The position numbers were made by a program, and so were the translations under genes. A DNA stretch of 64,000 nucleotides, taken from NCBI GenBank assembly GCA_963678315.1, contig OY782781.1:960001-1024000 (forward strand). Reading direction: 5' to 3'. Below, one piece after another: positions 17,256-40,247 of the stretch. Every line of letters begins with the position of its first letter. Positions within the stretch are counted from its first letter, which is position 1. This DNA comes from Candidatus Cloacimonadales bacterium. Its GTDB lineage: Bacteria; Cloacimonadota; Cloacimonadia; Cloacimonadales; JAFGVF01. The notes beneath the pieces are model-generated. The model was not told the origin of the DNA and did no database searches. It saw only the letters and a program-made list of their open reading frames with translations.

Positions 17256-17351
17256 TAATGACCAAAAGTTATAACTATTGGTCATTATAATGGCTAAAAG
17301 TTATAACTATTGGTCATTATAATAGCGAGAAGTTATAAATAAGGTTCATTC
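17256..17351. repeat. Three tandem 32-bp palindromic repeats
   Basis: TAATGACCAAAAGTTATAACTATTGGTCATTA (17256), TAATGGCTAAAAGTTATAACTATTGGTCATTA (17288), degenerate third copy (17320). Confidence 0.9.
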
Positions 17352-22305: not shown

Positions 22306-22660
22306 CTCTCCTCACAATATATTAATCATTAAGATATATAGTCTGTAATTTTGTCTTACAAATAACTTAATATCCATAATTCATTTTTAATAAATCAATC
22401 TTGTCATGACCTCTTCTATTTACAGGATGTTCATGTACTCAAGATGCTTACAATTTAAATATTGACAAGGCAAAAGTCAACATTTTTAATTAGAGTTAAG
22501 AAAGGAGCTTATATGGATTAACACAGATAAAAAGAAAAAATGGCCACAAATGACACGAATCTTCACGAATAAGATTTAAAGCAAGATTGTTACTTTCTTC
22601 ATGCTCGCTTAAAGCTTTAATATAGTGTGCTTTTTCTTAAAGCTTAATGCATCATCCGGG

Positions 22661-24567: not shown

Positions 24568-24674
24568 TTTAACAGTTAGTTTATCTTCGATTGCATGTAT
24601 TCTAAGCTTGGTCAATAAATCGTCTGGTAGTTCTACAGTAAGTCTTGCAAAAGTGAACTTTTCTCAGTTTTCAT
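24568..24674 (-). pseudogene. Ribbon-helix-helix (CopG/ParG-like) gene fragment abutting the intron
   Basis: GGAG RBS and ATG at 24674. After a one-base shift in an A4 run it reads FARLTVELPDDLLTKLRIHAIEDKLTVK up to the intron boundary. Confidence 0.55.
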
Positions 24675-24789
24675 CAAATTACTCCATAGACTTGCTTTTT
24701 ATTGACAAAAAGCATATTTTTCTTGACTTAATGAGATATTGACAACTAATTAGTAAATAATTGATCATACATAAATATTGAGGTTTTTG

Positions 24790-27700
24790 ATGAACGTTAA
24801 GGTTATAGATAATAAACAAAATGGTTTACTTGGACATGAATTAAATAATATCATAAATGATGATGCAACTATTTCTATTACAACATCATACTTGACTATA
24901 TATGCACTAGAAGAACTGCATAAAAAACTAGCTAAGTCATCTAAATTAAGATTACTATTAGACAAGAATCCTTTTGTAGATAATGATAAATTAATTTCAC
25001 CAACCATTTACTTTGGTGACAATTCAGAGCTTTCATTGAAGAATAAACTAAACATTGCCTATCTTTCAAAGAAATGTTCCGAGTTACTGGAAAACAAAGC
25101 TGATATAAAAGCTATTAATCCTGGTATTGCTGGAAGCCCAATAACTCATATTATTGATAAGCAAGGTTCTCATACACTTTTACCATCTCCAACATTCTAT
25201 AATTCTCAATCTTTAGGTTATCTACCATCTAAACAACTCTCAATATTCAACCTTACATCTTTTAACAAGGATGAAGAAAACCCTTACAGTACATATTTTG
25301 AGACTTTGTGGTCAGATAAGAATAACACTGTCGATATTAAGAATGATATTCTAAAGCAATTAGATAGAGGATACAAAGACTATACTCCCCAAGAATTATA
25401 CTATTTTACATTGTACCATATATTCAAAGATAGTCTAGATGGTGTTGATGAAGATAAAGTAGTTAAATCAAAGACTGGTTTTAAAGATACAATTGTCTGG
25501 AATAAACTTTATAACTTTCAGAAGGATGGTGTACTTGGTGCTATTGATAAAATTGAAAAGCACAACGGCTGCATCATAGCTGATAGTGTAGGACTAGGTA
25601 AAACTTTCGAAGCACTTGCTGTGATAAAATACTACGAACTAAGAAATCATAGAGTACTTGTTTTATGTCCTAAGAAGCTGAGAGATAATTGGACTGTTTA
25701 TACTTTAAATGACACTCGTAATACTCTTTTGAAAGATAGATTTAATTATGATGTTTTGAATCATACTGATTTAACCAGAGAGTCTGGTTTTTCTGGTGAA
25801 ATGAACCTTGAAACTATCAACTGGAGTAATTATGATTTGGTTGTTATTGATGAATCCCACAACTTCAGGAATGGCTTCGCTAGATCTTCAGCAATAAAGA
25901 TAACAAGATATAGTCGATTAATGGACCAAATTATTAAATCAGGTGTTAGAACTAAAGTACTAATGCTGTCAGCAACACCCGTAAATAGTCGAATGAATGA
26001 TTTAAAAAACCAAGTAGCTTTCATTACTGAAGGTGATGAATTAGCTTTTGAAGACTATGGAGTTAATAATATTTCCTCTGTTATGAAACAAGCTCAAGGT
26101 CAGTTCAATAAATGGCTGAAGGAAAAGAAAGATAATAAGGATGTAGCTTCTAGTAAGTCTTTGCTTGAATCTATTGATGCACGCTACTTCAAATTGCTAG
26201 ATCTACTAACTATTGCTCGTTCACGTAAACATATAGAAAAATACTATGATGTTACTCGAATAGGTAAGTTTCCTGAAAGATTGAAGCCAATAAACATAAA
26301 ATCTGATATTGATTTAGATAATAGTTTTCCAGAATTAAAAGAGATTAATCGTAAAATTAGAAAGTTGAATTTATCGGCTTACTCTCCGATTAAATATGTT
26401 AGACCAGAAAAGCAAGATGAGTATAAAAGAAGATATGACCTAAAACTTGCAAAAGGTAGTGTATTTAGGCAAATCGACCGTGAACAGAGTCTTATTCAGT
26501 TAATGCGTGTGAACATGTTCAAACGTATGGAAAGCTCTATAAATTCATTTACTTTAACTCTCAAGAAGTTCTTAAAACAGGTAAATGCTATGTTAGAAAA
26601 GATTGATAATCATGCTGAGTTATACCAATCTGACCTAAACATAGAAGAGATTGATTTTGATGATACAAGTGTTGAGAGTTATCTGATAGGAAACAAGGTT
26701 AAAGTACTTATCCAAGATATGGATATTATCAAATGGAAACAGGATCTTAGAGAAGATAAAGAAAAACTATCTCATCTACTAAATGAAGCTCAAAAAATAA
26801 CATCTGCTAGAGATGCTAAACTAGGAGATTTAAAAGACATTATTCGCAATAAAATCAAAAACCCTATTAATGCTTCAAATAGAAAGATAATAGTCTTTAC
26901 TGCTTTTGCTGATACAGCTTCTTATCTTTACGATAATCTTGCTGAATGGGCACTTTCTGAGCTTGATATCAACTCAGCTGTAGTTAGTGGTTCAAAAGCT
27001 CTAAAAACTAATCTACAGGGTGTTAAATCAAGATATAATGATATTCTAACAAACTTCTCTCCTATTTCTAAAGAGAGGGTATTAAAAAACTCTGAGACAG
27101 ATAAAGAAATAGATCTACTTATTGCTACTGATTGTATTTCTGAAGGACAAAACTTACAGGATTGTGACTACCTTATAAACTATGATATTCACTGGAATCC
27201 AGTAAGGATTATCCAGAGATTTGGTCGTATTGATAGAATTGGTTCTAAGAACAATCAGATTCAATTAGTTAATTTCTGGGCTAATATGGAACTGGATGAA
27301 TACATAAACCTAGAAGCTAGGGTTAGTGGTAGAATGAAGCTTTTAGATATTTCAGCTACAGGCGAAGAAAATGTAATAGAGTCGAATCCTGAAATGAATG
27401 ATTTAGCTTACAGAAGAAAGCAACTTGAACAGCTTCAGAGTAAAGTCATAGATTTAGAAGATATTCAAGGTGGAATATCTATAACAGACTTAACATTCAA
27501 TGATTTTAAGGTTGAGCTTTTGGACTATCTGAGACATAATCAAGATGAGTTAGAAAGAACCCCTACTTCAATTCATGCTATTACTAAATTAAATAGCTCC
27601 GAGATTCCTCCAGGTGCAATATTCTGTTTGAAACAGATAACAGGTTCAACTGATAAAAACAAAGCTTATAATGCTCTTGAACCATACTACTTAGTCTATA

Positions 27701-28026
27701 TAGATTATGATGGTAATATCAAGTTCACTCTAGCACAGAGTAAGCAGATACTAGACTATTTCCAGAAGCTATGTTCAGGAAGTAAGGAAATTTACCAGGA
27801 CTTACTTAAAAGCTTCTCGAGAGATACGAAAAAGGGAAAGGATATGTCTTGTTACACTGAGATGCTAGAGTATGCGGTAGATAATATATTAGGAATTAAA
27901 CGTGAAAAAGGATTGGCAAGCTTGTTTAAGACAGGAGGAATAAATCTAACTAAAAAAGATAATTCATGGATAAAAGACTTTGAAGTAATATCGTTTCTCG
28001 TCATCGAGAAAGAAATTACTAATTGA
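24790..28026 (+). CDS. SNF2-family helicase with degenerate PLD-like N-terminal domain
   Basis: ADSVGLGKT, IDESHNFRN, LSATP, ATDCISEGQNLQ, WNPVRIIQRFGRIDRIG. No intact HxK motif seen in the N-domain. Start placed at the ATG after GAGG. Confidence 0.9.
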   Translation: MNVKVIDNKQNGLLGHELNNIINDDATISITTSYLTIYALEELHKKLAKSSKLRLLLDKNPFVDNDKLISPTIYFGDNSELSLKNKLNIAYLSKKCSELLENKADIKAINPGIAGSPITHIIDKQGSHTLLPSPTFYNSQSLGYLPSKQLSIFNLTSFNKDEENPYSTYFETLWSDKNNTVDIKNDILKQLDRGYKDYTPQELYYFTLYHIFKDSLDGVDEDKVVKSKTGFKDTIVWNKLYNFQKDGVLGAIDKIEKHNGCIIADSVGLGKTFEALAVIKYYELRNHRVLVLCPKKLRDNWTVYTLNDTRNTLLKDRFNYDVLNHTDLTRESGFSGEMNLETINWSNYDLVVIDESHNFRNGFARSSAIKITRYSRLMDQIIKSGVRTKVLMLSATPVNSRMNDLKNQVAFITEGDELAFEDYGVNNISSVMKQAQGQFNKWLKEKKDNKDVASSKSLLESIDARYFKLLDLLTIARSRKHIEKYYDVTRIGKFPERLKPINIKSDIDLDNSFPELKEINRKIRKLNLSAYSPIKYVRPEKQDEYKRRYDLKLAKGSVFRQIDREQSLIQLMRVNMFKRMESSINSFTLTLKKFLKQVNAMLEKIDNHAELYQSDLNIEEIDFDDTSVESYLIGNKVKVLIQDMDIIKWKQDLREDKEKLSHLLNEAQKITSARDAKLGDLKDIIRNKIKNPINASNRKIIVFTAFADTASYLYDNLAEWALSELDINSAVVSGSKALKTNLQGVKSRYNDILTNFSPISKERVLKNSETDKEIDLLIATDCISEGQNLQDCDYLINYDIHWNPVRIIQRFGRIDRIGSKNNQIQLVNFWANMELDEYINLEARVSGRMKLLDISATGEENVIESNPEMNDLAYRRKQLEQLQSKVIDLEDIQGGISITDLTFNDFKVELLDYLRHNQDELERTPTSIHAITKLNSSEIPPGAIFCLKQITGSTDKNKAYNALEPYYLVYIDYDGNIKFTLAQSKQILDYFQKLCSGSKEIYQDLLKSFSRDTKKGKDMSCYTEMLEYAVDNILGIKREKGLASLFKTGGINLTKKDNSWIKDFEVISFLVIEKEITN

Positions 28027-28078
28027 GAATTGATAATAACCTGTTTGCCGACCGGCAGGGAATGGATAATGGATAATT
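28021..28078 (+). repeat. Heptamer array A (AATKGAK orientation) with embedded GC-rich mini-hairpin
   Basis: aattgag aattgat aat[aacctgtttgccgaccggcaggg]aatggat aatggat aatt. Confidence 0.8.
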
Positions 28079-28108
28079 TCTTGCTTAAAAGATATTAAGG
28101 AAGTGTTG

Positions 28109-28939
28109 ATGAAAATAAATAAACAGATAAGTGTTGAGGGTATAACAGTATCAATGTTTAATAATAACAACAATGATTACATATCATTGACTGATATTGC
28201 TAAGAGTAAAGAGGGAGATTCAAGGGCTGCAGATATTATTAAAAACTGGATTAGAAATAGAAGCACTTTGGAGTTTATAGGTACTTGGGAGCTTATTCAT
28301 AATCCTGAATTTAAAGTGGTAGAATTCGACCACTTTAGATTAAATTCTGGTTTAACCTCTTTTGTACTTAGTCCAGGTAAATGGATTGAGTCAACTAATG
28401 CCATAGGAATAGTTGTTAAAAAAGGAAGATATGGTGGAACTTATGCTCATAAAGATATAGCATTAGAATTTTGTTCTGCTATTAGTCCTATTTTTAAGTT
28501 ATATTTGATTAAAGAGTTTCAGCGCTTAAAAGATGAAGAGCAAAAACTATTAGGCTGGACTACTAAACGACTTCTAACAAAAGTTAATTATCAGATTCAT
28601 ACAGATGCAATAAAAGAAAAATTGATACCTGATTATCTAACACCAAAGCAAGTATCATTTGTTTATGCTTCTGAAGCTGATGTTTTGAACATGGCTCTTT
28701 ATGGCAAAACAGCAAAACAATGGAAATTGGAAAACCCAGATAGTAAAGGTAACTTACGTGACTTTTCAAGTATTGAGCAATTAGTATGTTTGGCTAATCT
28801 AGAAAATTTGAATGCACTATTTATAAAAGAAGGTCTTACTCAAGCTCAAAGATTGATAAAACTAAATCATATTGCTATCCAACAGCTACACATCTTATCA
28901 AAAAATAAGAAGAGACTAGTTGAAATTAATAAAGAATAG
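28109..28939 (+). CDS. KilA-N domain DNA-binding protein
   Basis: DYISLTDIAK, IKNWIRNRSTLEFIG.WE, GRYGGTYAHKDIALEF, NY.IHTDAIKE. Confidence 0.92.
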   Translation: MKINKQISVEGITVSMFNNNNNDYISLTDIAKSKEGDSRAADIIKNWIRNRSTLEFIGTWELIHNPEFKVVEFDHFRLNSGLTSFVLSPGKWIESTNAIGIVVKKGRYGGTYAHKDIALEFCSAISPIFKLYLIKEFQRLKDEEQKLLGWTTKRLLTKVNYQIHTDAIKEKLIPDYLTPKQVSFVYASEADVLNMALYGKTAKQWKLENPDSKGNLRDFSSIEQLVCLANLENLNALFIKEGLTQAQRLIKLNHIAIQQLHILSKNKKRLVEINKE

Positions 28940-28974
28940 TTTCGTGTTTTTTGTGGTTAAATAATAGGAGTTAT

Positions 28975-29004
28975 TATTGAATTCTGAATTATCAATTATC
29001 AATT
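28975..29004 (-). repeat. Heptamer array B (inverse orientation) overlapping the DUF4391 start
   Basis: tattg aattctg aattatc aattatc aatt; translated as NSELSIIN. Confidence 0.75.
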
Positions 29005-29744
29005 TACTAAAGATCCCGGAAAGATCAATTCAAAATCAAAAGCTTACTAAGAAAAGTATTCTAGAGAATGCTAATCTTAAAGCTTCATCTAAGAAAGTAA
29101 TTAGAGATGATATAGACGAGATGCTAATAGTAGCTTTAGTAGACCCTAAGTCTTCTAACATTAATGCTTATGAAGATGATAACTATAGCATTGATGCTAT
29201 TCTACTGATTCAAGTTCTTCTTAAGAAGAGAGAGTCCTTGACCAAAGTTGCAGAGATTCTTCACACAGTTATTCCCTATCAGTTGCTAATTGTATTTTCT
29301 TACCAAGATGAGCTAAGCTTCAATATTGCCGATAAGAGAATTAATCAAGTAGATAAAGATAAGCGTATTATAGGTAATTATACTTTTACTGAATGGTTAA
29401 AAACAGGAGATGATAAGCTTAACAAGTTTATTGATAGTATTGCCTTTTCAAACTTGTCTCACCTTAATCTGAAGGCTTTCTATGATGATATAAGAACCAG
29501 GATATATAATCTAAAGACATCATTGATTAATGGAGAATTTCAAGCAAAGTCTATTGAGGAAAGTCAAGATGATATTATATTATTACGAAAGATAAAAGAA
29601 ATTAATGCTGAAATATTAAAACTAAAGAATACTTATAAGAAAGAGATTAACTTTAATGCTAAAGTTAAGTTAAATGTAGAAATAAAGAAGTTAGAAAAAG
29701 AAAAAGAATTTTTATTCAGTAACTTTAAATATTCAGAACACTAG
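28977..29744 (+). CDS. DUF4391 family protein
   Basis: ILHTVIPYQLLIVF, ADKRINQ, C-terminal coiled coil KKEINFNAKVKLN; usual position between the SNF2 helicase and type III mod. Confidence 0.8.
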   Translation: MNSELSIINLLKIPERSIQNQKLTKKSILENANLKASSKKVIRDDIDEMLIVALVDPKSSNINAYEDDNYSIDAILLIQVLLKKRESLTKVAEILHTVIPYQLLIVFSYQDELSFNIADKRINQVDKDKRIIGNYTFTEWLKTGDDKLNKFIDSIAFSNLSHLNLKAFYDDIRTRIYNLKTSLINGEFQAKSIEESQDDIILLRKIKEINAEILKLKNTYKKEINFNAKVKLNVEIKKLEKEKEFLFSNFKYSEH

Positions 29745-29766
29745 CAATTATACATTTGGAGATAAA

Positions 29767-31152
29767 ATGCAATACATAACAAATGGCATTGAACATAGTC
29801 TAAGGTTATCAAAAGAAGAGCTTGAAGAATTATTAGGTTCTAAAGAAAAAATATCTGATACTTCAGAATTTAGGGTTGTTAAATTACTAAAATACATACT
29901 TCATAGCACTAAAGAAGATATTTACCAATGGGAAGAGGGGGATTTGAAGCAAGATTTATTGAGCTTCTTTGAAGATCATGATATATCGACCATAAACAAA
30001 GCTTTTATCAATCACAAATTACGGAAATTTTATTCAGATATAAGGGAAAAGATTGCACCACTAATATATTCGGACAATCTTAGTATTCTTATGAGCAATG
30101 GATGTTCAATGGTTGCGGGTTCAAAAGGTATTAATTGTGGAATAAATAATGAGCTATCTGAGATTTTAGAAAAATTTAAACATCGAAGTAATAAACTCAG
30201 TAATAACATTAAGTCCTTCAAAAATTTATCCCCTGAAAAAGTTCTAGATAAACTATACCAGATAAAATCATATTTTGAGATTATTCTTCAGAATGACAAA
30301 GATACCTATAAAATAAATAATTTGATTAATGAATATCGGGAAGTATTATTAAAAAGTTATGTTTTAGGTATTGATTATAGTAAAATAGACATTCACAAGA
30401 ATTTATTAATGAAATTAATGGGAATTAAAAACAAAAGAACTACACTGTTTACATTAAATTATGATTTGCTTATTGAGAAGGCATCCGAAGAACTAAATAT
30501 ACAATTAAATAATGGTTTTAGAGGTTTTCATTTTCGTAAGTTCAACCCATCAAATTTTAATTATCAAAATTATATTGAGACTTCCAGCCATGAAAAACTT
30601 TCAACAAAATCTTTCAACTTAGTAAAACTACATGGTTCTCTATCTTGGCAATATTCTGAAGATGAGCCTGTATATAGTATTGTTGAGAAACAGCTATGTT
30701 TCAATAACGACAATAAGATATCTTTTGAAAGTATCTCTAATGAAGCAATTATTTATCCTGTGCAAACTAAGAAATCACAATCTTTAGATTTACCTTATAG
30801 TGAAATGTTTAGGCAACTAAATGAAACATTAAACAAAAGAAATACAACACTAATTGTTGTAGGATATAGCTTTTTAGATGAACATGTTAATGATATTATA
30901 AATAATGCTTTATCAAATCCATACTTTAACTTAGTTATATTTTCATACACTTCTTTAGACGAAATCAAAGAAGATGATAAATCTGAATTGTATAAATATT
31001 ATAACCAAGCCAAGAATGATAATAGAATTTCGATTTTTTCCGGTAATATATTAGGAGATTTTGCTACTGTTACGAATGATTTAATCCCAACAGAGCCCCC
31101 TAAGAATATTCTTAGAGAACTTGAAACAATTATTAAAAAAAATAGGACGTAA
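29767..31152 (+). CDS. SIR2-like NADase effector of a Sir2-HerA system
   Basis: FTLNYDLLIE, KLHGSLSW, IIYP..K, PYSEMFR, VVGYSFLDEHVN. Confidence 0.9.
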   Translation: MQYITNGIEHSLRLSKEELEELLGSKEKISDTSEFRVVKLLKYILHSTKEDIYQWEEGDLKQDLLSFFEDHDISTINKAFINHKLRKFYSDIREKIAPLIYSDNLSILMSNGCSMVAGSKGINCGINNELSEILEKFKHRSNKLSNNIKSFKNLSPEKVLDKLYQIKSYFEIILQNDKDTYKINNLINEYREVLLKSYVLGIDYSKIDIHKNLLMKLMGIKNKRTTLFTLNYDLLIEKASEELNIQLNNGFRGFHFRKFNPSNFNYQNYIETSSHEKLSTKSFNLVKLHGSLSWQYSEDEPVYSIVEKQLCFNNDNKISFESISNEAIIYPVQTKKSQSLDLPYSEMFRQLNETLNKRNTTLIVVGYSFLDEHVNDIINNALSNPYFNLVIFSYTSLDEIKEDDKSELYKYYNQAKNDNRISIFSGNILGDFATVTNDLIPTEPPKNILRELETIIKKNRT

Positions 31153-31154
31153 AG

Positions 31155-32696
31155 ATGGAAAGAGTTAGAATTGGTAAAGTAGTTCAAATGGATGCTGATT
31201 CAGTTATTGTTGAGGTTATAGATAATTCATATGTAGACAAAGTAAATTTTAGTATAGGTATTTCAGTTGTTCCTGTGGTAATAAATAAGCTTATATCAGT
31301 AAAACTACTAAATAGTAAAGAAGTAGTATTAAAAATCAACAAGATATACGATAAAAATCACTTTATTAATAGAGATGATTTTAAAGTACATAATAGTAAA
31401 ATATTTCTAGAAGCAACTCCTTTAGGTATTTATGATAGTTATTTATATAAATTTGACGAAGGAATCAACAATTACCCATTAATCAATACAGAAGTTTACT
31501 CTATCTCAAGTGAAACAAAAAAGAGTATTATTAATATTTCATCCACATACAAGTTACAGGTTGGAAATTCTTTTGGAAATGATGATTTAGTAAATGAAGC
31601 AAATCCTGATATTCTTTTAGGTAAACATCTAGGCGTTTTTGGAAATACTGGATCAGGTAAAAGTTGTACTGTGACTTCTATCATACAGGGATTAAAGAGA
31701 AGGTTATATACCAGTTCAGGTACAGATGTAAGTATAAAACCTAAAATTATAATATTTGATTCAAATGATGAATATGCTCAAGCTTTTAATGATACAGAAT
31801 TTCGTTATAAGAAAATATCTAAGTCAAAATTGAAATTGTCACATACTAAATTATCTGATAGTGAATACTTTAAATTTTTTGGTGCAAGTCAAGGGGTACA
31901 AGCTCCATTATTAAAACAAGCTCTTACCAAACTAAGACCTAATGGATTCTTTTCGCTGCAAGATATAATAAACATGATAAACGACCTAATATCAACGAAC
32001 AGCAGGGAACTTGATAGAAATGGTAATAAAACTAGAAGTAATTTTAGTTTTAATCAATGGACTAATTGGACTAACACTATGATAAATAGAATTGAAAGGA
32101 TAATTGAGAATAATGAGCTAAAACTAATAATTGATGATCATGCAGTAAATACAATCGATCAAATCTTTGATGATAATTCTAACGAGATCTTTCTTATTGA
32201 TTCAGACTTTGATAGAGAAGAATTAGATATTGTTATGTTTCTATTCGCAAAGCTTGTATACAAAAAGTATCAAACAGATGGTCCAAACATTATACTTGTG
32301 TTAGAAGAAGCTCATAGATATATAAATGATTATGACAATAAAGACTACAAATTAGGAAATTATTATATTGAGAAAATTGCAAGAGAAGGTAGGAAATTTG
32401 GGATAAGTTTAGTTATATCAAGTCAAAGACCTTCTGAATTGTCCAAGACAGTAATTTCTCAATGTAACTCTTATATAATTCATAAGCTTACTAATAAACA
32501 TGATATAGAGATTGTTAGTAGATTTCTTAGTTATAACAGCCGTGAATATGTCAATTCATTAACAAGTCTTGAAAGACAACACGCACTAATTTGTGGAGAA
32601 GCATTTGGTTTCCCTGATATTACTAGAATTTTTAATGCCAGTCCAACACCTAATAGTAATGATCCTGAGATTGTCAAGAACTGGCTAGAAGATTAG
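31155..32696 (+). CDS. herA: HerA/FtsK-family ATPase (DUF87)
   Basis: KHLGVFGNTGSGKS, VLEEAHRY, IAREGRKFG, SQRPSELS. Confidence 0.92.
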   Translation: MERVRIGKVVQMDADSVIVEVIDNSYVDKVNFSIGISVVPVVINKLISVKLLNSKEVVLKINKIYDKNHFINRDDFKVHNSKIFLEATPLGIYDSYLYKFDEGINNYPLINTEVYSISSETKKSIINISSTYKLQVGNSFGNDDLVNEANPDILLGKHLGVFGNTGSGKSCTVTSIIQGLKRRLYTSSGTDVSIKPKIIIFDSNDEYAQAFNDTEFRYKKISKSKLKLSHTKLSDSEYFKFFGASQGVQAPLLKQALTKLRPNGFFSLQDIINMINDLISTNSRELDRNGNKTRSNFSFNQWTNWTNTMINRIERIIENNELKLIIDDHAVNTIDQIFDDNSNEIFLIDSDFDREELDIVMFLFAKLVYKKYQTDGPNIILVLEEAHRYINDYDNKDYKLGNYYIEKIAREGRKFGISLVISSQRPSELSKTVISQCNSYIIHKLTNKHDIEIVSRFLSYNSREYVNSLTSLERQHALICGEAFGFPDITRIFNASPTPNSNDPEIVKNWLED

Positions 32697-32917
32697 TGAT
32701 TAAAAAGCTTAATAAAATTATGAGAATGAAACGCTATTGGGAATGTCTAAAAAGAGCCTAATATATTGTACAAGAAGAGGTTCTAAAACTAGATGGATCT
32801 TATCTACTTCTCGGCTCACACAATGATAAATAATTATAATTAGCCGAGAAATGAGCCGAGAATCAAGACACGATATCAGTTTTTTTAAATCTGAAATATA
32901 TATATATAAATGTCACC

Positions 32918-32947
32918 TGTGAAAGACCTTTTCGAAAGGTCTCTACA
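32918..32947. terminator. Hairpin downstream of herA
   Basis: TGTGAAAGACCTTT-TCG-AAAGGTCTCTACA. Confidence 0.5.
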
Positions 32948-33033
32948 CCCTTACTTGCCACCGTAAAAAATCGGCTTTTTTTCAAAGAGGCGCATGGGCA
33001 AGCACTAATAACGGCTTATTATTATCAAAATAA

Positions 33034-33114
33034 CATTATCAATTGACAATTATGCATTGTTCATTAACAATTGTGAATTATGCATTATTAATTATGTATT
33101 GTTAATTATAAATT
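33034..33114 (-). repeat. Heptamer array C (11 units, inverse orientation) just before the mod RBS
   Basis: cattatc aattgac aattatg cattgtt cattaac aattgtg aattatg cattatt aattatg tattgtt aattata aatt. Confidence 0.9.
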
Positions 33115-33129
33115 AAAAATGGAGCATAT

Positions 33130-35121
33130 ATGGAAAAATTAAAGGGTACTAGTAAAGATTTACTAGCTGAAAATATAAATGAACTAAGAAAGCTTTTCCC
33201 TGAAGCTTTTACTGAAGATAAAATAGATTTTGAAACTCTGAAAGAAGTTTTAGGGGAATATGTAGAGAAAGATAAAGAACGCTACTCTTTCAATTGGGCT
33301 GGTAAGCAACAAGCACGCAGAGAAGCTCAAAAAGTATCTACAGGAACACTTAGACCTTGTAAAGAAGAGTCTGTTAACTTTGATGATACAGAAAATCTAT
33401 ATATCGAAGGTGATAACCTAGAAGTTCTTAAACTCCTGCAAAAGTCTTATCATAATTCTATCAAGATGATTTATATTGATCCTCCTTATAACACAGGTAA
33501 GGACTTTGTTTATAAAGATAACTATCATGATAATCTTAAAAACTATAAGCAAGTAACAGGACAAGTAGACTCTGAAGGCAATAAATTATCGACTAACAGT
33601 GATTCAGCTGGACGTTACCACTCTAATTGGCTTAACATGATGTACCCACGTCTAAAACTTGCTCGTAATCTGCTGAAGGATGATGGGGTGATTTTTATAT
33701 CGATTGATGATATCGAGGTTGGAAATCTTCGAAAAATATGTGACGAGATTTTTGGAGAAGAAAATTTACTTTCAGAATTAATTTGGCATTTATCTAGCGG
33801 GACTCAAGCAGGTCATTTTACACGTGCAAATGAAGCTATTCTGTGTTACTCAAAAAACAAAAAAGTGTTGTCTTTTTTTGAAGATAAGTCAGGTGGAACT
33901 ATTAAACATGGTGCTTTAAAAAAAATTTCTTTAGTTAATCCTAGAAGTAGAGTTTTGTTTAAAAAAGGTTCAATTACTTATGAAGGTCATAATGCTGTAT
34001 TTAATGGAGAATTAGGAGGATCAGAAAGACAATTTATAATTAGTGAAAAAATGCTATTTAAAGATGGTCTTTTAGATCAAGATGTCGAAGTAGAAGCAGG
34101 ATGGGCTATGAAAAACCAGTTGTTGTCATGGCTTGATGGTAAAGAAACTTATGATACAAAAGGTCAAAAAGTAATCCGCTTCTATTTTAATTCACAAGGA
34201 ATACTTTTTTATGAAAAAGAAAGAGGAACAGTTCATCCTAAAACCGTTTTACCAAGTTTTGTAGGGAATACTAAGTCAGGTTCAAATGAGATAAAAAAGT
34301 TATTTGACAGTAAAATTATGGATTATCCCAAACCATCGTCTCTCATTAAGTATTTATCGAAAGTTGTAACAAATAACGATGATATCATCTTAGACTTCTT
34401 CTCAGGTTCAGCGACAACAGCCCATGCAGTATTAGATTTAAACAAAGAAGATGGTGGAAACCGTAAATTTATTATGGTTCAACTTCCTGAACCCACAGCA
34501 GAGAAAAGCGAAGCTTTCAAGGCTGGCTATAAGACTATTGCAGAAATAGGCAAAGAACGAATACGTCGGGTAATTCATAAAATGCATAATTCAGAATGCA
34601 TAATTAATAATCAAAATACAGAAGAAGGGAATTCTCAATTATCCATTAACAATCCGTCTAAGCCGGACTTACGTTCTGAATTAGACCTTGGATTCAAGGT
34701 CTTCAAGCTTGATTCTTCTAATATCAAAGCATGGGATTCTCAACCTGAAGACTTAACAACACAATTAAAGGCATTTGTTAATAATATAAAAGAAGATAGA
34801 ACAGAAGATGATATCCTTTATGAGATACTTCTTAAGTACGGACTTGAACTTACAGTTCCAATTGAGAATTCAGAATGCATAATTGAGAATGGAAAGAGAA
34901 AAGTTAATATCTATAATATAGCAATGGGTGAAATCATTGCTTGTTTAGATGATAGTATTACTCTTCAAGTAGTAGAGCATATCGCAAAGATGAAGGATGA
35001 ATTTAATCCAGAGAGTTGTCGTGTTGTCTTTATGGATAATGGCTTTAAGAATGATGTGGTAAAGACCAATGCTATGCAGATATTGGCGAAGCATGGAATT
35101 GAGGAAATACGCTCTATTTAA
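33130..35121 (+). CDS. mod: Type III R-M methyltransferase subunit
   Basis: IEGDNLEVLKLL, IYIDPPYNTG, HSNWLNMMYPRL, PKP, ILDFFSGSATT, GFKVFKL. Confidence 0.95.
   Translation: MEKLKGTSKDLLAENINELRKLFPEAFTEDKIDFETLKEVLGEYVEKDKERYSFNWAGKQQARREAQKVSTGTLRPCKEESVNFDDTENLYIEGDNLEVLKLLQKSYHNSIKMIYIDPPYNTGKDFVYKDNYHDNLKNYKQVTGQVDSEGNKLSTNSDSAGRYHSNWLNMMYPRLKLARNLLKDDGVIFISIDDIEVGNLRKICDEIFGEENLLSELIWHLSSGTQAGHFTRANEAILCYSKNKKVLSFFEDKSGGTIKHGALKKISLVNPRSRVLFKKGSITYEGHNAVFNGELGGSERQFIISEKMLFKDGLLDQDVEVEAGWAMKNQLLSWLDGKETYDTKGQKVIRFYFNSQGILFYEKERGTVHPKTVLPSFVGNTKSGSNEIKKLFDSKIMDYPKPSSLIKYLSKVVTNNDDIILDFFSGSATTAHAVLDLNKEDGGNRKFIMVQLPEPTAEKSEAFKAGYKTIAEIGKERIRRVIHKMHNSECIINNQNTEEGNSQLSINNPSKPDLRSELDLGFKVFKLDSSNIKAWDSQPEDLTTQLKAFVNNIKEDRTEDDILYEILLKYGLELTVPIENSECIIENGKRKVNIYNIAMGEIIACLDDSITLQVVEHIAKMKDEFNPESCRVVFMDNGFKNDVVKTNAMQILAKHGIEEIRSI
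34572..34894. repeat. In-frame heptamer arrays D and E inside mod
   Basis: aatgcat aattcag aatgcat aattaat (34581-34608); inverse aattctc aattatc cattaac (34630-34650); aattgag aattcag aatgcat aattgag aatggaa (34860-34894). Confidence 0.85.
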
Positions 35122-35261
35122 TTGATAATGGATAATTGATAATGGATAACTGAGGAAACTGGGAACGCCGGCGTCCCTGCCGGCTTTAGCATGTAAGTAC
35201 ATGCTAAAAAATATTATATAATTGATAATTGATAATTCATAATGGAGAATTGACAATGAGA
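35120..35261 (+). repeat. Heptamer arrays F1/F2 enclosing two hairpins, upstream of the four-helix-bundle gene
   Basis: aattgat aatggat aattgat aatggat aactgag; GCCGGC-gtccct-GCCGGC and TTTAGCATGT-aagt-ACATGCTAAA hairpins; aattgat aattgat aattcat aatggag aattgac aATG. Confidence 0.88.
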
Positions 35262-35648
35262 AGAAATATAGTCTTAGATAAAAGTTTTAAGTTTGCAGTA
35301 AGGATTATTAAATTATCTCAGTTTTTACAGAAAGAAAAACACGAATTTATTCTTTCAAAGCAAATTTTAAGAAGTGGAACATCCATTGGAGCATTAATTA
35401 GGGAATCTCAACATGCAGAGTCTTCTAAAGATTTTATCCATAAAATGAATATTGCTTTAAAAGAAGCAAATGAAACAGAATATTGGCTATTGCTACTTAA
35501 AGAGGGAAATTATATTTCACTGAAAGAGTTTGAAAGTATTAAGCCAGATATAGAAGAATTGCTAAAGCTGTTAATTTCTATAATTAAGTCGACAAAATCG
35601 AATAATAATCTAAGTGAAGAGTTTACAGGTTATGAAACTAATTCGTAA
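35256..35648 (+). CDS. Four-helix-bundle protein (23S rRNA IVP / bAvd-like family)
   Basis: KSFKFAVRIIKL, LSKQILRSGTSIGA..RE, S.KDFIHK..IALKEANETEYWL. The GGAG RBS and ATG are both supplied by repeat units. Confidence 0.93.
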   Translation: MRRNIVLDKSFKFAVRIIKLSQFLQKEKHEFILSKQILRSGTSIGALIRESQHAESSKDFIHKMNIALKEANETEYWLLLLKEGNYISLKEFESIKPDIEELLKLLISIIKSTKSNNNLSEEFTGYETNS

Positions 35649-35681
35649 TCATTAATTGTTAATTATGAATTATCAATTAAC
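35640..35681 (-). repeat. Heptamer array G (inverse orientation) after the four-helix-bundle gene
   Basis: aattcgt aatcatt aattgtt aattatg aattatc aattaac. Confidence 0.85.
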
Positions 35682-35701
35682 AACTATACTTTGGAAAAAC
35701 T

Positions 35702-36811
35702 ATGGATAAAAAAGAAAATTTATTAAATATCGAAGATTCTTTGTTTAACAGTATTACTGAAATTATAAATACAGCCAAGCAAAATATAATACGCTCTGTT
35801 AATATTAATATGGTTGTAGCTTATTGGTTAATAGGTAAAGAAATTGTCTTGTCTATCCAAAAAGGTTCAGAACGTGCCGAATATGGACAAGAGATTTTAA
35901 AAAATTTGTCTAAAAGATTAAATGATAAATTTGGTTCTGGTTTTTCTGATGCAAACTTAAAGAATTTCAGACAATTTTATCTTGTTTTTAGAGATAGACA
36001 AAAAAGCTACCCAGTGGGTAGCGAATTCGATTTATCAAAAAGCTACCCATTGGGTGACGAATTGATTCCAACTTTTCATCCTAACCTTTCTTGGTCTCAT
36101 TACCGTGCTTTGATGCGTGTTCAAAATGATGAGGCAAGAGATTTTTATGAAGTAGAATCAATAAAGGCTGGTTGGAATAAAAGAGAATTAGAACGTCAAA
36201 TCCATAGTTTTTACTATCAGAGAATGCTTAAAAGTAAAAATCCTGAGAAATTTATCACAAAAGTAAAAAATGATAAATTACAAAACATTGAAGATATTCT
36301 AACTTCCCCCAATGTGCTTGAATTTTTAAATATTCCTGATAGTACAAAACTATATGAATCTGATCTTGAAAATGCAATTATAAACAATCTTCAAAAGTTC
36401 TTATTAGAAATAGGAAAAGGATTTTCTTTTGTGGCACGTCAAAAAAGGCTTAAATATGAAGATGAAGATTTCTTTGTTGATCTTGTCTTTTTTAATTATA
36501 TTCTCAACTGCTTTGTCTTAATTGACTTAAAAATAGGAAAACTTACCCATAAAGATGTTGGACAGATGGACAGTTATGTAAGAATGTATGAAGATTTATA
36601 TAAAGTTCAAGGAAGTAATCCAACAATTGGAATTATTCTTTGTTCTGAAAAAAATGAAGCAGTCGCTAAATATTCTGTCTTAAACGAATATAAAAATATC
36701 TTTGCGAATAAATATATGTTGCATCTTCCAACAGAAGAACAATTAGCAAATGAGATAAGAAAGGAAAGAAAACTTATTGAAATGAAGAAAAATAATTTAA
36801 TTGAGAATTAA
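35702..36811 (+). CDS. DUF1016/YhcG family PD-(D/E)XK nuclease
   Basis: YWLIG..I, RAEYG, GFS..NL..FRQFY, LSWSHY, FLLEIGKGFSFVARQ, VDLVFF..LIDLK, DVGQM..Y. Confidence 0.93.
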   Translation: MDKKENLLNIEDSLFNSITEIINTAKQNIIRSVNINMVVAYWLIGKEIVLSIQKGSERAEYGQEILKNLSKRLNDKFGSGFSDANLKNFRQFYLVFRDRQKSYPVGSEFDLSKSYPLGDELIPTFHPNLSWSHYRALMRVQNDEARDFYEVESIKAGWNKRELERQIHSFYYQRMLKSKNPEKFITKVKNDKLQNIEDILTSPNVLEFLNIPDSTKLYESDLENAIINNLQKFLLEIGKGFSFVARQKRLKYEDEDFFVDLVFFNYILNCFVLIDLKIGKLTHKDVGQMDSYVRMYEDLYKVQGSNPTIGIILCSEKNEAVAKYSVLNEYKNIFANKYMLHLPTEEQLANEIRKERKLIEMKKNNLIEN

Positions 36812-36819
36812 GAAGTATT

Positions 36820-36866
36820 TTTCGTGTTGTTTCGTGTATTTAGTGGTAAAAATGTATTTCGAGGTT
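36820..36866. repeat. TTCGTG-type short repeats (also at 28940-28958, and inverted at 22544-22570)
   Basis: tttcgtgttg tttcgtgta tttagtggt..tttcgaggtt; tttcgtgttt tttgtggtt; ccacaaatga cacgaatctt cacgaat. Confidence 0.65.
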
Positions 36867-36884
36867 AAAAAAGAGGTATTAAAA

Positions 36885-39842
36885 TTGAAAATAAAATTTG
36901 ATAGTAATTTAGAGTTTCAAAAAGAAGCAATTGCTTCAATAACAGGTATCTTTGAAGGGCAAGAAGTATGTAAAGATAATTTCTCTGTTCTTGCCCCAAC
37001 TGAGATAACTATTGAAAATGTTAATATTGAAGATAAAGGTGGTTTTATCCCAGGATATAGTAATAAATTAGATATTCTTGAAGAGGAGCTTCTTGACAAT
37101 GTGAGGAAGATACAGTTAAGAAATGGGCTTAAACAATCTTCTTCAATAAATAAAAAGGACCTTAACTTCACTGTTGAAATGGAGACAGGTACAGGTAAAA
37201 CTTATGTATATTTAAGAACAATCTTTGAAATGAATAAACTATATGGATTTACTAAATTTATTATTGTAGTGCCTTCTATTGCTATCAAAGAGGGAACGAA
37301 TAAGTCTCTTGATATAACTAAAGAACATTTTAAAGCTTTATATGATAATACTCGCTATGACTATTTTACGTACGAATCAAAGAAGTTAGAGCAAGTAAGA
37401 TCTTTTGCTACTAACGATTATATTCAGATAATGGTGACAACAGTGCAGGCTTTTAATAAGGATGCAAATATTATTAATAGATACAATGATAAGCTAGGAG
37501 GACTACCGTTACATCTTATACAGCAAACCAACCCTATAGTAATAATAGATGAACCTCAAAGTGTTGATAGTGCTGATAAATCAAAGGAAGCGATAAAATC
37601 ATTGAATCCCTTATGTTGTTTAAGATATTCAGCTACTCATAAAGAGAAATACAACTTGATGTATAAACTTGATTCTGTTGATGCTTATGAGAAGAAATTA
37701 GTTAAACAGATAGAAGTATCATCGTTAGAAGTTACAAACTTCCAGAATAATGCTTATATCAAGCTTGTAAGTGTTAGTAATAATAACAACTCTATAACAG
37801 CAAGACTTGAAGTTGATGTTATGGAAAAGGGCAAAACCAAGAGAAAAACCATAACAGTTAAGCAAAATACTGATCTAGTAGATAAGACTAAAAGAAATAT
37901 CTATAGTGGCTACATTGTTAAAGATATTGCTTGCCTTCCAGATAATGAGTTTATTGATTTTACTTCTAAGCCTGAAACAATAAGACTTGGAATGTCTATT
38001 GGCTCTATTGATGATAATGTTATTAAGAGAAGTCAAATTGCTACTACTATAAGAAAACACTTAGATAAAGAGCTTATCCTAAATCCTAAAGGTATTAAAG
38101 TTTTAAGTCTATTCTTTATTGATAAAGTTGCAAATTATAGATTCTACGATGATCAAGGCAATCCTCAACAAGGTAAATATGCTATTATGTTTGAAGAAGA
38201 GTATTCTAAAATAGCTAGTGGTGAGAAATATAAGAACTTGTTCAAACATATTAAAGATATAGGTGAAGAGGCTGAAGTGGTCCATAATGGTTATTTTTCA
38301 GCAGATAAAAAAGGTAAGCTAAAAGATACTAAAGGAACTACCCTTGCTGATGATGATACCTACTCTTTGATTATGAAAGATAAAGAGAGACTGTTAAGCT
38401 TTGATTCTAAACTTAGATTTATCTTCTCACATTCAGCACTCAAAGAAGGCTGGGATAATCCTAATGTATTTCAAATATGTACTCTCAACGAAACTAAAGC
38501 AGAGATGAAGAAACGCCAAGAGATTGGTAGAGGACTTAGGCTATGCGTTAACCAAGATGGAGAGAGAATTCACGGCTTTGATGTTAATACCTTAACTGTT
38601 ATGGCTAATGAATCATATAATGACTTTGTAACTAAGCTTCAAAAGGAAATTGAAAAGGATACAGGTATCAGGTTTGGAATTCTTGATAGTCACAACTTTG
38701 CAAATATTATTACTGGAATGGAAAATAATAAACCTATGTATCTAGGAGAACAGAAATCAGAAGAGCTTTATAACTTCTGCATCATGAAAGGATATGTTGA
38801 TAAGAGGAACAATAAAGTCAATGATCTACTAAGAACACACCTAAGAGAAAACACAGTAGTTATTCCTGATGAATTTGAAGCAGTAAAAGGACAAGTGTTG
38901 AAACAGCTTAGAAGAGTTGCTGGTAATCTTAACATCAAAGATGCTAGCGAAAAGAAAAAAATAGAAACAAATAAAGAAGTTCTTATTAGTGAAGAATTTA
39001 AGAATCTTTGGGATAAAGTTAAATACAAGACTACTTTTTCTGTTGATTTTGATTCGGAAAAGCTTGTTGAAAAGTGTGCTGAAGATATAAAGTATAATTT
39101 ATTTGTAAAAGAAGCTAAACTAACAGAAACTTCAAGAAAAATTAAACAAACTCGTGGCGGAATTCTTTCTGCTGATACACAAGATTACTCAACTACTGTG
39201 AAAGTAGGAAAAATCAAACTTCCTGATATTGTTGGTTATCTTCAAAATGAAACTAACCTCACCAGAAAGTCTATAGTTGATATCTTACTTAAGAGTGAAA
39301 AGCTTCAACATTTTAAGACTAATCCTCAAAAGTTTATTGATGGAACAATTGATATAATCAAAACACAGATGCGTCATTTTATTGTAGATGGTATAAAGTA
39401 CCAAAAAATAGGTGATGATTACTTCTATGCTCAAGAACTTTTTGAAAATCAAGAGCTGTATGGTCATTTAAAGCAAGATATGGTAGAAAGTAGTAAATCG
39501 CCTTATGAGTACGTGAAATACGACTCTAATATTGAATCTGAAATGGCTCAAAGCTTCGAGAAAAGTAACAATGTGAAAGTATATGCTAAGCTACCTGCTT
39601 GGTTCAAAATTGATACACCACTGGGATCATATAATCCTGATTGGGCTATACTGTGGGAGCACAACGGACAAGAAAAGTTATACTTTGTCGTTGAGACTAA
39701 AGGAACTCTCTCCTGGGAATTCTTACGTCCAACAGAAAAAGGTAAAATTGAATGTGGTAAGAAACACTTCCAAGCTCTTGGAAATGACGTAAGCTTAAAG
39801 GTTGCAGATAGTTTTGAGAGTTTAAGAGAGAGGATTAAGTAA
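36885..39842 (+). CDS. res: Type III R-M restriction subunit
   Basis: EMETGTGKTYVY, IIDEPQ, RYSAT, SALKEGWDNPNVFQIC, QEIGRGLRL, YNPDW...VETKG. Start placed at the TTG after GAGG. Confidence 0.95.
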   Translation: MKIKFDSNLEFQKEAIASITGIFEGQEVCKDNFSVLAPTEITIENVNIEDKGGFIPGYSNKLDILEEELLDNVRKIQLRNGLKQSSSINKKDLNFTVEMETGTGKTYVYLRTIFEMNKLYGFTKFIIVVPSIAIKEGTNKSLDITKEHFKALYDNTRYDYFTYESKKLEQVRSFATNDYIQIMVTTVQAFNKDANIINRYNDKLGGLPLHLIQQTNPIVIIDEPQSVDSADKSKEAIKSLNPLCCLRYSATHKEKYNLMYKLDSVDAYEKKLVKQIEVSSLEVTNFQNNAYIKLVSVSNNNNSITARLEVDVMEKGKTKRKTITVKQNTDLVDKTKRNIYSGYIVKDIACLPDNEFIDFTSKPETIRLGMSIGSIDDNVIKRSQIATTIRKHLDKELILNPKGIKVLSLFFIDKVANYRFYDDQGNPQQGKYAIMFEEEYSKIASGEKYKNLFKHIKDIGEEAEVVHNGYFSADKKGKLKDTKGTTLADDDTYSLIMKDKERLLSFDSKLRFIFSHSALKEGWDNPNVFQICTLNETKAEMKKRQEIGRGLRLCVNQDGERIHGFDVNTLTVMANESYNDFVTKLQKEIEKDTGIRFGILDSHNFANIITGMENNKPMYLGEQKSEELYNFCIMKGYVDKRNNKVNDLLRTHLRENTVVIPDEFEAVKGQVLKQLRRVAGNLNIKDASEKKKIETNKEVLISEEFKNLWDKVKYKTTFSVDFDSEKLVEKCAEDIKYNLFVKEAKLTETSRKIKQTRGGILSADTQDYSTTVKVGKIKLPDIVGYLQNETNLTRKSIVDILLKSEKLQHFKTNPQKFIDGTIDIIKTQMRHFIVDGIKYQKIGDDYFYAQELFENQELYGHLKQDMVESSKSPYEYVKYDSNIESEMAQSFEKSNNVKVYAKLPAWFKIDTPLGSYNPDWAILWEHNGQEKLYFVVETKGTLSWEFLRPTEKGKIECGKKHFQALGNDVSLKVADSFESLRERIK

Positions 39843-39880: not shown

Positions 39881-40247
39881 CATATAGTTTATGAGGGATA
39901 TAAATTTAGGAGGGCATTTAGATATCTTAGATCATATAACAATTGCTGATATAGATGTAGAATATTTGGATAAAAATTGGAAGCAGATTGAAATGTAAAT
40001 ATGTCATTGCTAAAAATAAACTTGACATTCCGAAAATATAACGAGAAAATTAAATACTTAAATATTATTAAACCCAAATAATGCACTAGGACTTGAAAAA
40101 TAGCACTATATTATTTGGCAATAATAACTTTCATAATCTCAACTAGAATATATATTATTCAAGCTTCGATTCTGTAAGATATTTTGCTGAAATAATCTGC
40201 ACTATTTTCGTCAAACCTAATACATCATCTGGGTTAAAGGAATGTAT

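Follow-up and report, generated by a model that had tools for sequence, protein, structure and literature searches.

The window analysed here is a 64,000-nucleotide stretch of a Candidatus Cloacimonadales genome (contig OY782781.1, positions 960,001 to 1,024,000; genome G000 below). It carries a Type III restriction-modification operon whose core genes encode a SNF2 helicase, DUF4391, the methyltransferase Mod and the restriction subunit Res, and ten arrays of TAATTGA-like heptamers lie in this operon between 28020 and 35688. The element at 35119-35688, made up of a forward array, a gene of the PF05635 family and a reverse-complement array, is a complete intervening-sequence-type cassette in sense orientation between mod and yhcG, and another pair of arms flanks the junction occupied at present by a KilA-N gene. 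Sequence comparison indicates that a forward array, a PF05635 gene and a reverse-complement array form a conserved unit in many phyla, with covarying arms. The other arrays of the operon are the same kind of repeat as the cassette arms, settled at junctions, and do not constitute a purpose-built scaffold. The favoured reading, to which a probability of about 0.5 is attached, is that hairpin-forming TAATTGA-family elements of the intervening-sequence type colonised permissive junctions and two tolerant linkers of Mod, and are probably processed by RNase III. It builds on the anatomy of the elements, the covarying arms in many phyla, the sense orientation and the conserved array positions in sister operons.

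Arrays were located with Tandem Repeats Finder (TRF), with a motif scan (pattern [TGC]AA[TC][TG][GC]A, at least 3 units) and by sequence inspection. Period-7 calls were made by TRF at 28061-28077, 28987-29004, 33034-33115, 34581-34623, 34860-34890, 35119-35153, 35218-35257 and 35661-35687; the motif scan added the array at 34628-34648, and inspection the array at 28020-28041. The arrays, the repeats that split the forward arms and the cassette gene are as follows.

28020..28041, plus strand: forward array TAATTGA GAATTGA TAATAAC (sequence inspection), pairing with 28968-29000 in the minimum free energy (MFE) and centroid structures
28042..28060, plus strand: G+C-rich hairpin splitting the forward array; it holds CCGGCAGGG, the complement of CCCTGCCGG at 35176-35184 (by inspection, no statistic)
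28061..28077, plus strand: forward array, AATGGAT x 2.4 (TRF, 100% matches)
28978..29005, minus strand: reverse-type array, 4 units (TRF, motif scan)
33034..33115, minus strand: reverse-type array, about 11 units (TRF, motif scan, inspection)
34580..34648, plus strand: in-frame arrays of Mod linker 1, forward at 34580-34607 and reverse at 34628-34648, peptide KMHNSECIINN... (TRF, motif scan, alignment)
34859..34893, plus strand: in-frame forward array of Mod linker 2, 5 units (TRF, motif scan, alignment)
35119..35153, plus strand: outer forward array, 5 units, the last being TAACTGA (35147-35153) (TRF, inspection, motif scan)
35156..35208, plus strand: G+C-rich repeat splitting the cassette forward arm (blastn against the genome)
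35218..35257, plus strand: inner forward arm, 5.7 units (TRF, inspection)
35256..35648, plus strand: PF05635 gene (23S rRNA intervening-sequence protein, four-helix-bundle; Pfam 1.8e-30)
35648..35688, minus strand: cassette reverse arm (TRF, motif scan, complementarity, fold)

An earlier note on this DNA had described period-7 arrays across the operon, ordered by orientation and overlapping stop codons, ribosome-binding sites (RBSs) and start codons, and all of this was borne out. Forward arrays (TAATTGA/TAATGGA) follow the SNF2 and Mod stops and precede the PF05635 gene; those of the reverse-complement type are found where DUF4391 starts, ahead of the Mod RBS and downstream of the PF05635 gene. 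The SNF2 stop (TGA, 28024-28026) falls inside the first unit of the array at 28020-28041, and the Mod stop (TAA, 35119-35121) opens the first unit of the array at 35119-35153. The array at 28978-29005 occupies the first DUF4391 codons (TTG start at 28977, peptide MNSELSIIN), while that at 33034-33115 ends 15 nt before the Mod ATG, with GGAG at 33121-33124. Both the RBS (GGAG, 35244-35247) and the ATG (35256) of the PF05635 gene are located within the inner forward arm, and its stop codon (35646-35648) abuts the reverse arm. The three arrays inside the Mod coding sequence are additions to the earlier observation; both of their sites are variable linkers, and the linker 2 array is an insertion relative to array-less orthologues in the alignment.

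The PF05635 gene is the only one in G000. Its product of 130 aa matched Pfam 23S_rRNA_IVP at 105.7 bits against a cut-off of 33.8 (E 1.8e-30) and, in the Protein Data Bank (PDB), 2RLD (E 1.2e-39), an entry with five chains; these chains, together with the literature, suggest that the protein may form a ring-shaped assembly. The arms at 35217-35251 and 35654-35688 are 86% complementary over 35 nt. When 35110-35710 was folded as RNA, a free energy of -129.8 kcal/mol was obtained (z -4.1; none of 20 shuffles did as well), and the outer array at 35118-35143 paired with 35655-35680 in the MFE and centroid structures. Pairing was also predicted across KilA-N in both structures, there with no shuffle statistic, so that the pairing of forward and reverse arrays around passenger genes proposed earlier is predicted at both places. 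In one metagenome contig (run X5), exactly 7 nt were missing from the forward arm at 35232; unit number therefore varies in nature. Contig joints at 33115>40070, 35208>40074 and 28349>32934, seen in four metagenome runs, were interpreted as repeat artefacts rather than cassette loss because one side fits only 29-39 nt, beside multi-copy repeats.

The design was then followed through a comparative sample of 77 loci with PF05635 relatives at 47-77% identity, taken from a species-representative genome collection and spread over many phyla by record titles. Arrays of period 7, 14 or 21 were present within 400 nt of the gene at 74 of the 77 loci, and ungapped pairing between upstream and downstream arms was found at 70 of the 74 testable loci and in the window, three loci having too little flank. 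The paired stretches had a mean length of 30 nt and were Watson-Crick at 1873 of 2136 positions. The heptamer unit differs by locus (AATTGAC, AAAATTG, AGAGTTG, AGCAGTG, AAGTAGG, AACAGTG and others), and the arms within a locus match. Downstream arms measured 31-33 nt at 29 of 65 loci, the commonest length being 32 nt, or 4.6 units. The PF05635 gene was co-oriented with both neighbours at 60 of 71 loci and opposed to both at 3. Unit distance rises with protein distance among the loci, which is what joint descent of gene and arms would predict. The occurrence of the same cassette in two "phyla" (L021 and L117) was dismissed as a case of transfer, since the two loci are the same DNA. At one further place (L104/L109, G002:C4 ~488359-489111), two tandem PF05635 genes lie within one ATAGCCT/ACAGCCT arm pair.

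Within the window's own family, arrays were found at 9 of the 11 loci whose PF05635 gene resembles that of the window; the 9 loci whose PF05635 gene belongs to a more distant subfamily have no arm-like arrays. As a control, KilA-N homologues from the same order were inspected: paired heptamer arrays occurred at 0 of 29, only the KilA-N gene of the window having them, and the possibility that KilA-N brought arms of its own was rejected on this ground. Armed pairing around a four-helix-bundle gene is a widespread and barely described design, and no description of heptamer-armed PF05635 cassettes in operons was found in a literature search.

A precedent for the cassette is provided by the intervening sequence in helix 45 of Coxiella burnetii 23S rRNA, which contains an S23p open reading frame (ORF) and forms a 28-bp stem from terminal inverted repeats; three tandem GACAGAT heptamers, variable in number among strains, precede the start codon, and RNase III cuts the stem at the start of the first heptamer repeat (Warrier et al. 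2016, PMC4990558, in the sections drawn on here). ORF-bearing Leptospira cases are cited in the same sections. The window cassette resembles such elements in having a loop that contains a PF05635/S23p ORF, terminal inverted repeats with a predicted stem of about 28-35 bp around the ORF, and tandem heptamers directly upstream of the ORF start that vary in number (as far as those sections describe them), and in horizontal spread. It differs in lying in the mRNA of a restriction-modification operon rather than in a 23S rRNA helix, in its heptamer unit, in its doubled forward arm, which is split by another repeat element, and in the presence of further same-unit arrays at other junctions and inside coding sequence. 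Cutting by RNase III is described for Coxiella and is proposed for the window cassette. An RNase III gene is present in G000, and an Rfam scan of the window returned no rRNA, only parts of a group II intron.

The abundance of the repeats was assessed over the whole of G000, a single 2.99 Mb contig of about 31% G+C. TAATTGA-family arrays numbered 23, as against 2, 2 and 4 in three second-order Markov genomes, and 8 of the 23 fall within window positions 28978-35679, around the PF05635 gene. With a stricter score, 33 arrays of period 7 were counted, compared with 2-11 for periods 5, 6 and 8-11. Well over 100 heptamer arrays from other unit families, also absent from the earlier observation, are held by the genome; most of the strong period-7 arrays are of these units (AGGAGTT/AGGAGTG, AATGAAG, AAAAATG) and are scattered over intergenic regions.

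Several of these arrays deserve separate mention. Forward TAATTGA arrays occur about 5-25 nt after the stops of several large genes ending in T9SS sorting domains (G000:C1 31963-31983, 251063-251083, 2512476-2512496, 2510878-2510907 and 1125224-1125241), a placement like that after the SNF2 and Mod stops; T9SS sorting-domain matches number 126 in G000, and photosystem and flagellin families gave no match there, a profile that suggests a member of the FCB group. AGGAGTT/AGGAGTG arrays (~40, up to about 150 nt long, with Shine-Dalgarno-like runs on one strand; for example G000:C1 1783635-1783786, 868690-868838, 1990232-1990344 and 2754811-2754899) have no associated PF05635 gene in G000. In two sister genomes, PF05635 cassettes carry (AAAAATG/AAAAGTG)n arms (L112 in G007, L113 in G001); orphan arrays of this unit at G000:C1 741730, 1120069, 2811517 and 2934500, where the matching gene is absent, may be relics of lost cassettes. 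Five tandem units of ~260 nt, each with an ATTCTTC array, are followed by a CTAACTC array at G000:C1 2076179-2077253, and paired like arrays 350-520 nt apart are found at 1119279-1119831, 2623413-2623805 and 2934500-2934943.

The genes of the operon are all co-directional, in the order SNF2, KilA-N, DUF4391, SIR2, HerA, Mod, PF05635, YhcG and Res, according to the ORF listing, Pfam and PADLOC. Those outside the cassette are listed below; junction 1 denotes the interval between SNF2 and DUF4391, and junction 2 that between DUF4391 and Mod.

24778..28026, plus strand: SNF2-type helicase, first core gene (Pfam Helicase_C, SNF2-rel_dom; PADLOC HKD+Snf2 8.8e-130)
28109..28939, plus strand: KilA-N gene, PADLOC candidate PDC-S22, cargo at junction 1 (Pfam KilA-N 4.5e-21; PDC-S22 8.5e-126)
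28977..29744, plus strand: DUF4391 core gene (Pfam DUF4391 2.7e-51)
29767..32696, plus strand: SIR2 (29767-31152) and HerA (31155-32696), cargo at junction 2 (Pfam SIR2_2, DUF87; PADLOC SIR2 1.4e-58, HerA 1.7e-85)
32951..33003, plus strand: hairpin repeat, degenerate here, with matches at 65 other places in the genome (blastn against the genome)
33130..35121, plus strand: Type III methyltransferase Mod, core gene (Pfam N6_N4_Mtase; PADLOC MTase_III 1.8e-204)
35702..36811, plus strand: YhcG/DUF1016 PD-(D/E)XK gene, PADLOC candidate PDC-S02 (Pfam, PADLOC)
36801..39842, plus strand: Type III restriction subunit Res, core gene (Pfam ResIII, RE_endonuc; PADLOC REase_III E 0)

Mod and Res subunits in one operon identify a Type III restriction-modification system (PADLOC, Pfam), and the adjacent SIR2 and HerA-type ATPase genes, 2 nt apart, a SIR2-HerA defence system; HerA and Mod are separated by 430 nt. 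YhcG/DUF1016 is an older resident between Mod and Res, present at the same place in L014, L019 and L020, where arrays are absent. No recombinase or transposase was found in the cassette or operon by Pfam, and a scan of the 14 ORFs from 21301 to 44138 gave no match to an integrase family. Promoter and terminator scans did not rise above shuffles (90 vs 84.8 +/- 9.7 and 7 vs 4.6 +/- 2.1, respectively), and promoter-like hits within the arrays were given no weight.

The operon was compared with its closest relatives. The nearest, L013, belongs to genome G010 from another genus of the same family (amino acid identity 67% for SNF2, 66% for DUF4391, 59% for Mod and 67% for Res) and has arrays of the window's unit at the same places, namely the DUF4391 start, before the Mod RBS, both Mod linkers and the Mod stop. 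In a third operon, L150 of genome G011, the arrays where DUF4391 starts and ahead of Mod are degenerate. Counterparts of the window arrays and the cargo of each junction are given below.

DUF4391-start array: L013 5773-5806; degenerate copy in L150
Pre-Mod array: L013 8765-8819 (8 units); L150 427-446 (about 3 units)
Mod linker 1 array: L013 10285-10425 (fold z -4.0, 0 of 200 shuffles)
Mod-stop array: L013 10917-10954
SNF2-DUF4391 cargo: KilA-N in G000; SMODS, S_4TM and DUF2513 in G010; DUF2513 in G011
DUF4391-Mod cargo: SIR2 and HerA in G000; an unknown protein of 697 aa in G010; Bro-N in G011
Mod-Res cargo: PF05635 and YhcG in G000; an unknown protein of 213 aa in G010

The pre-Mod array differs in length, with 11 units in the window, 8 in L013 and about 3 in L150. 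On the favoured reading, the arrays upstream of mod, within mod and where DUF4391 starts are arms that stand alone or have decayed, and they descend from the common ancestor of the three sister operons. Of 21 TAATTGA-like 20-mer matches in G010, 10 were on the operon contig; since a reversed-pattern control gave 43 matches, only this clustering, and not the counts themselves, was used. G010, whose assembly is in 350 contigs though rated 99% complete, yielded no close homologue of the window PF05635 protein, the nearest match having 29% identity (E 2e-6). The arrays near the G011 operon (AATTGCT/AGCAATT) have the unit of that genome's own armed PF05635 cassette, which is on another contig.

Farther out, a search for arrays in more distant genome orthologues (37-48% identity) found none. 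Metagenomic relatives were obtained from a Mod-alignment search (a search with DUF4391 only gave none), and period-7 arrays within 200 nt upstream of Mod were present in 3 of 80 (L170, L183 and the weak, AT-rich L189), none of which has a PF05635 gene. The arrays of L183 lie before Mod, after Mod and before Res and are built of another unit (AAAACTG/CTGACTC), so another heptamer-rich host did likewise with a unit of its own. On these comparisons, the arrays are a trait of the host lineage and this operon family does not require them. Cargo-sized gaps (>400 nt) separate Mod from Res in 22 of 50 metagenomic relatives and DUF4391 from Mod in 10 of 34; the SNF2-DUF4391 junction is empty in 32 of 32 and filled in all three array-bearing operons, a contrast that may reflect a single event, as the three share ancestry. 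Cargo genes change junctions within the operon family: types known from the window were met at other junctions in metagenome contigs L227, L165, L170, L236 and L237, with SIR2, HerA and YhcG between Mod and Res, and KilA-N at the SNF2-Mod, DUF4391-Mod or Mod-Res junction.

These comparisons bear on the larger proposals of the earlier note. A scaffold centred on, or dependent on, the four-helix-bundle gene is contradicted by G010, which keeps the arrays with only the 29% match, and a general tie between arrays and such genes by the many other-unit arrays of G000 beside its one PF05635 gene. As to cassette exchange at the arrays, cargo does differ at the array-marked junctions of three close operons, but array-less relatives exchange cargo too. 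A repeat-guided regulatory or cassette-exchange system serving the operon finds no support, given that 77 of 80 distant operons lack arrays near Mod, many of them with cargo. The scaffold fails because the arrays have colonised particular lineages, and operons of this family that lack them exchange cargo as well.

Under the favoured reading, the arms would form duplexes of about 26-35 bp in the polycistronic RNA, and RNase III would cut them, by analogy with the heptamer stem in the intervening sequence of Coxiella 23S rRNA. The host transcript would be divided into segments at the junctions, and such cutting would render the insert harmless to it. The arrays would have colonised sites that tolerate them and would not serve to organise the operon. 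Sense-orientation bias, the predicted stems and the Coxiella precedent were counted as evidence for a role in RNA. A number of observations weigh against this reading. Among arm mismatches at the PF05635 loci, G-U (59) did not exceed A-C (71; p 0.33); without a wobble excess, selection on the sense RNA specifically is not supported, and the result is just as compatible with a constraint on the DNA. A stem over KilA-N would make the start of DUF4391 inaccessible or lead to its cleavage, and the mod mRNA would be cleaved at the hairpins inside the gene, which looks costly if processing is efficient. The arrays within coding sequence speak against a role in RNA only, and those of Mod linker 1 in the window (34580-34648) fold no better than shuffles (z -0.04). 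Many arrays of G000 and L183 are solitary and so cannot act by pairing. The 77 loci are also not independent: some are near-identical, L021 and L117 being the same DNA, and the labels of metagenome-assembled genomes may be wrong.

Among the alternatives, an action at the DNA level would make the inverted arrays terminal repeats or cruciform sites for cassette insertion, loss or swap, for instance by homologous exchange between arms with a common heptamer, and junction arrays would then cause cargo to turn over. The missing G-U excess, the in-frame arrays of mod, where a role for RNA is hard to see, the different cargo at each array-marked junction of the three close operons, the junction 1 contrast (3 of 3 filled against 0 of 32), changes of unit number by whole heptamers, and the insertion of other small repeat elements into or beside arrays all agree with it. 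It is nevertheless regarded as unlikely: cassette and operon contain no recombinase or transposase by Pfam; 60 sense against 3 antisense cases among 71 are unexpected for a symmetric DNA hairpin, unless selection sees gene expression; array-less relatives often turn over cargo at the DUF4391-Mod (10/34) and Mod-Res (22/50) junctions; and the array-bearing operons, with their shared ancestry, may represent one event at junction 1. A different proposal, that neutral, slippage-prone repeats are kept recognisable by replication slippage and tolerated at junctions and linkers with no role at all, is considered very improbable. In many bacterial genomes, long simple repeats are most often heptamers (Mrazek 2007, cited in the introduction of PMC4679880), one contig shows a whole-unit length difference, the pre-Mod array differs in length among the sisters, and 77 of 80 related operons work without arrays; yet slippage leaves unexplained the reverse complementarity of arms whose unit changes between lineages, the tight 31-33 nt range of downstream arm lengths and the sense-orientation bias.

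The heptamers might instead be multivalent sites for a trans-acting protein that controls translation or stability of the genes they overlap, the candidates being the PF05635 oligomer or a host RNA-binding protein such as MacGregor proposed for TAACTGA (2015, PMC4679880, in the part consulted). Consistent with such sites, the PF05635 gene, Mod and DUF4391 each have an array over or beside their RBS and start; the sole PF05635 gene has 8 of the unit family's 23 arrays clustered around it; the G011 operon arrays share their unit with that genome's armed cassette; the commonest arm of 32 nt (4.6 units) is near five units, and 2RLD has five chains; and the TAACTGA repeats of a Beggiatoaceae genome are, in the same part of PMC4679880, mostly just upstream of start codons. 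Binding sites too seem improbable, since G010 keeps its operon arrays with a best PF05635 match of 29% identity (in the 99% complete assembly of 350 contigs), more than 100 other-unit arrays exist in G000 with no second PF05635 gene, and the joint divergence of unit and protein is predicted by plain common descent of a linked unit. Wider still, and quite doubtful, is the speculation that the arrays are the cis code of a trans-acting system, in which the PF05635 protein, as an oligomer, would recognise stretches of some five heptamers in RNA or DNA and place defence modules (DUF4391, Mod and cargo) under one small protein, while unit-sharing arms would permit arm-flanked genes to be swapped between junctions by homologous exchange. 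If true, it would link rRNA intervening sequences, the very large PF05635 family and the heptamers repeated in Beggiatoaceae, Cyanobacteria and genomes of the FCB group.

Direct repeats of TAACTGA have been described in Beggiatoaceae, Cyanobacteria and five Bacteroidetes, mostly just upstream of starts and with no mechanism given in the part of the article covered here (MacGregor 2015, PMC4679880). Like the arrays of the window, they are described there as short tandem sets (2-6 or more heptamers), mostly intergenic and often directly before starts or after stops, mixed with related units and occasionally reversed inside ORFs. That part gives no link to PF05635 and almost no inverted pairs (one indirect repeat), in contrast to the inverted pairs around genes here; in the main text, "four helix", "S23" and "intervening sequence" occur 0 times. 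The window units TAATTGA, TAATGGA and GAATTGA are 1-2 bases off TAACTGA, which occurs once exactly, at 35147-35153. A forward array a few nt upstream of a start is found only at the PF05635 gene, the other arrays being post-stop, reversed or in coding sequence.

Rickettsia palindromic elements are palindromic repeats inserted in frame in protein genes. The Mod linkers are comparable as tolerant protein parts with hairpin repeat DNA in frame, the L013 linker copy folding at z -4.0; their arrays differ in being tandem heptamers, much shorter, and of the same family as gene-cassette arms. Integron cassettes are promoter-less, co-oriented and stacked, and are bounded by an imperfect inverted repeat (attC). 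The promoter-less, co-oriented cassettes of the window are likewise stacked between fixed genes and bounded by imperfect inverted repeats, but the operon has no integrase, its repeats flank both ends as tandem heptamers, and related operons exchange cargo without such repeats. In phasevarions, Type III mod genes undergo phase variation through simple sequence repeats. The window has repeats with a unit not divisible by three inside and upstream of a Type III mod, with the differences that the units are imperfect and mixed, that the frame is open, and that whole-unit length variation was listed, in metagenome contigs, only for an intergenic arm. A phase-variable mod was rejected because the units of the arrays in and before mod are imperfect, mixed variants (TRF matches 72-81%), and no indels within the mod coding sequence were listed in metagenome contigs, at a depth there of only ~1-4. 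A likeness of the PF05635 fold to bAvd, the accessory protein of diversity-generating retroelements (DGRs), is drawn from part of PMC10053308. By sequence, bAvd was not found from the PF05635 protein at E 0.01, and no DGR setting was seen for the gene, the only reverse transcriptase (RT) of the window belonging to a group II intron at 22685-24567.

We know of no function for PF05635, a very large family, no origin for 23S rRNA intervening sequences since their first description, and no accepted role for the heptamer repeat arrays of several phyla; at this locus the three appear as one thing. An intervening-sequence-type cassette lies in an ordinary operon, and its arm repeat recurs at junctions and in coding linkers, conserved between genera. 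If RNase III processes the stems, inserts would have a general route to living harmlessly within transcripts, and defence islands would contain a hidden layer of mRNA segmentation. In annotation, the arrays should be treated as repeat elements rather than operon-specific regulators.

Other repeats adjoin the arrays or the operon. The hairpin repeat with a degenerate copy at 32951-33003 (CCTTACT..CCTTGAAAAATCGGCTTTTTTTCAAGG..AGTAAGG) has further copies at G000:C1 868839-868890, 1990188-1990232 and elsewhere, and many CCTTGAAAAATCGGCTTTTTTTCAAGG hairpin copies lie directly next to (AACTCCT)n arrays and another G+C-rich hairpin, with which they make up composite intergenic elements. The G+C-rich repeat of ~53 nt at 35156-35208 has 10 other genome matches, among them three copies in tandem at 74-nt spacing (G000:C1 1664653-1664851) and copies at 250935-250976 and 942078-942109 that also adjoin heptamer arrays. 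A group II intron (Rfam D1-D4, domain V-VI) lies just upstream of the operon at 22661-24567, its RT/maturase split into two overlapping ORFs (23139-23918 and 23875-24462); contigs from three metagenome runs join 22660 to 24568 and represent an allele without it. A tie between the heptamer arrays and this intron was considered and found no support. Downstream of Res, an element of ~170 nt at 40066-40240 has the appearance of a miniature mobile element: over 50 pieces matching it occur elsewhere in G000, several of full length at 94-98% identity, and runs X2, X5 and X6 have contigs in which 40069 joins 40237 and the element is missing. Two tandem repeats unrelated to the heptamers were also recorded in the window, one of 32 nt at 17256-17338 (2.6 copies, 90% matches) and one of 10 nt, TATCTTCCGG, at 18986-19033 (4.8 copies, 94% matches).

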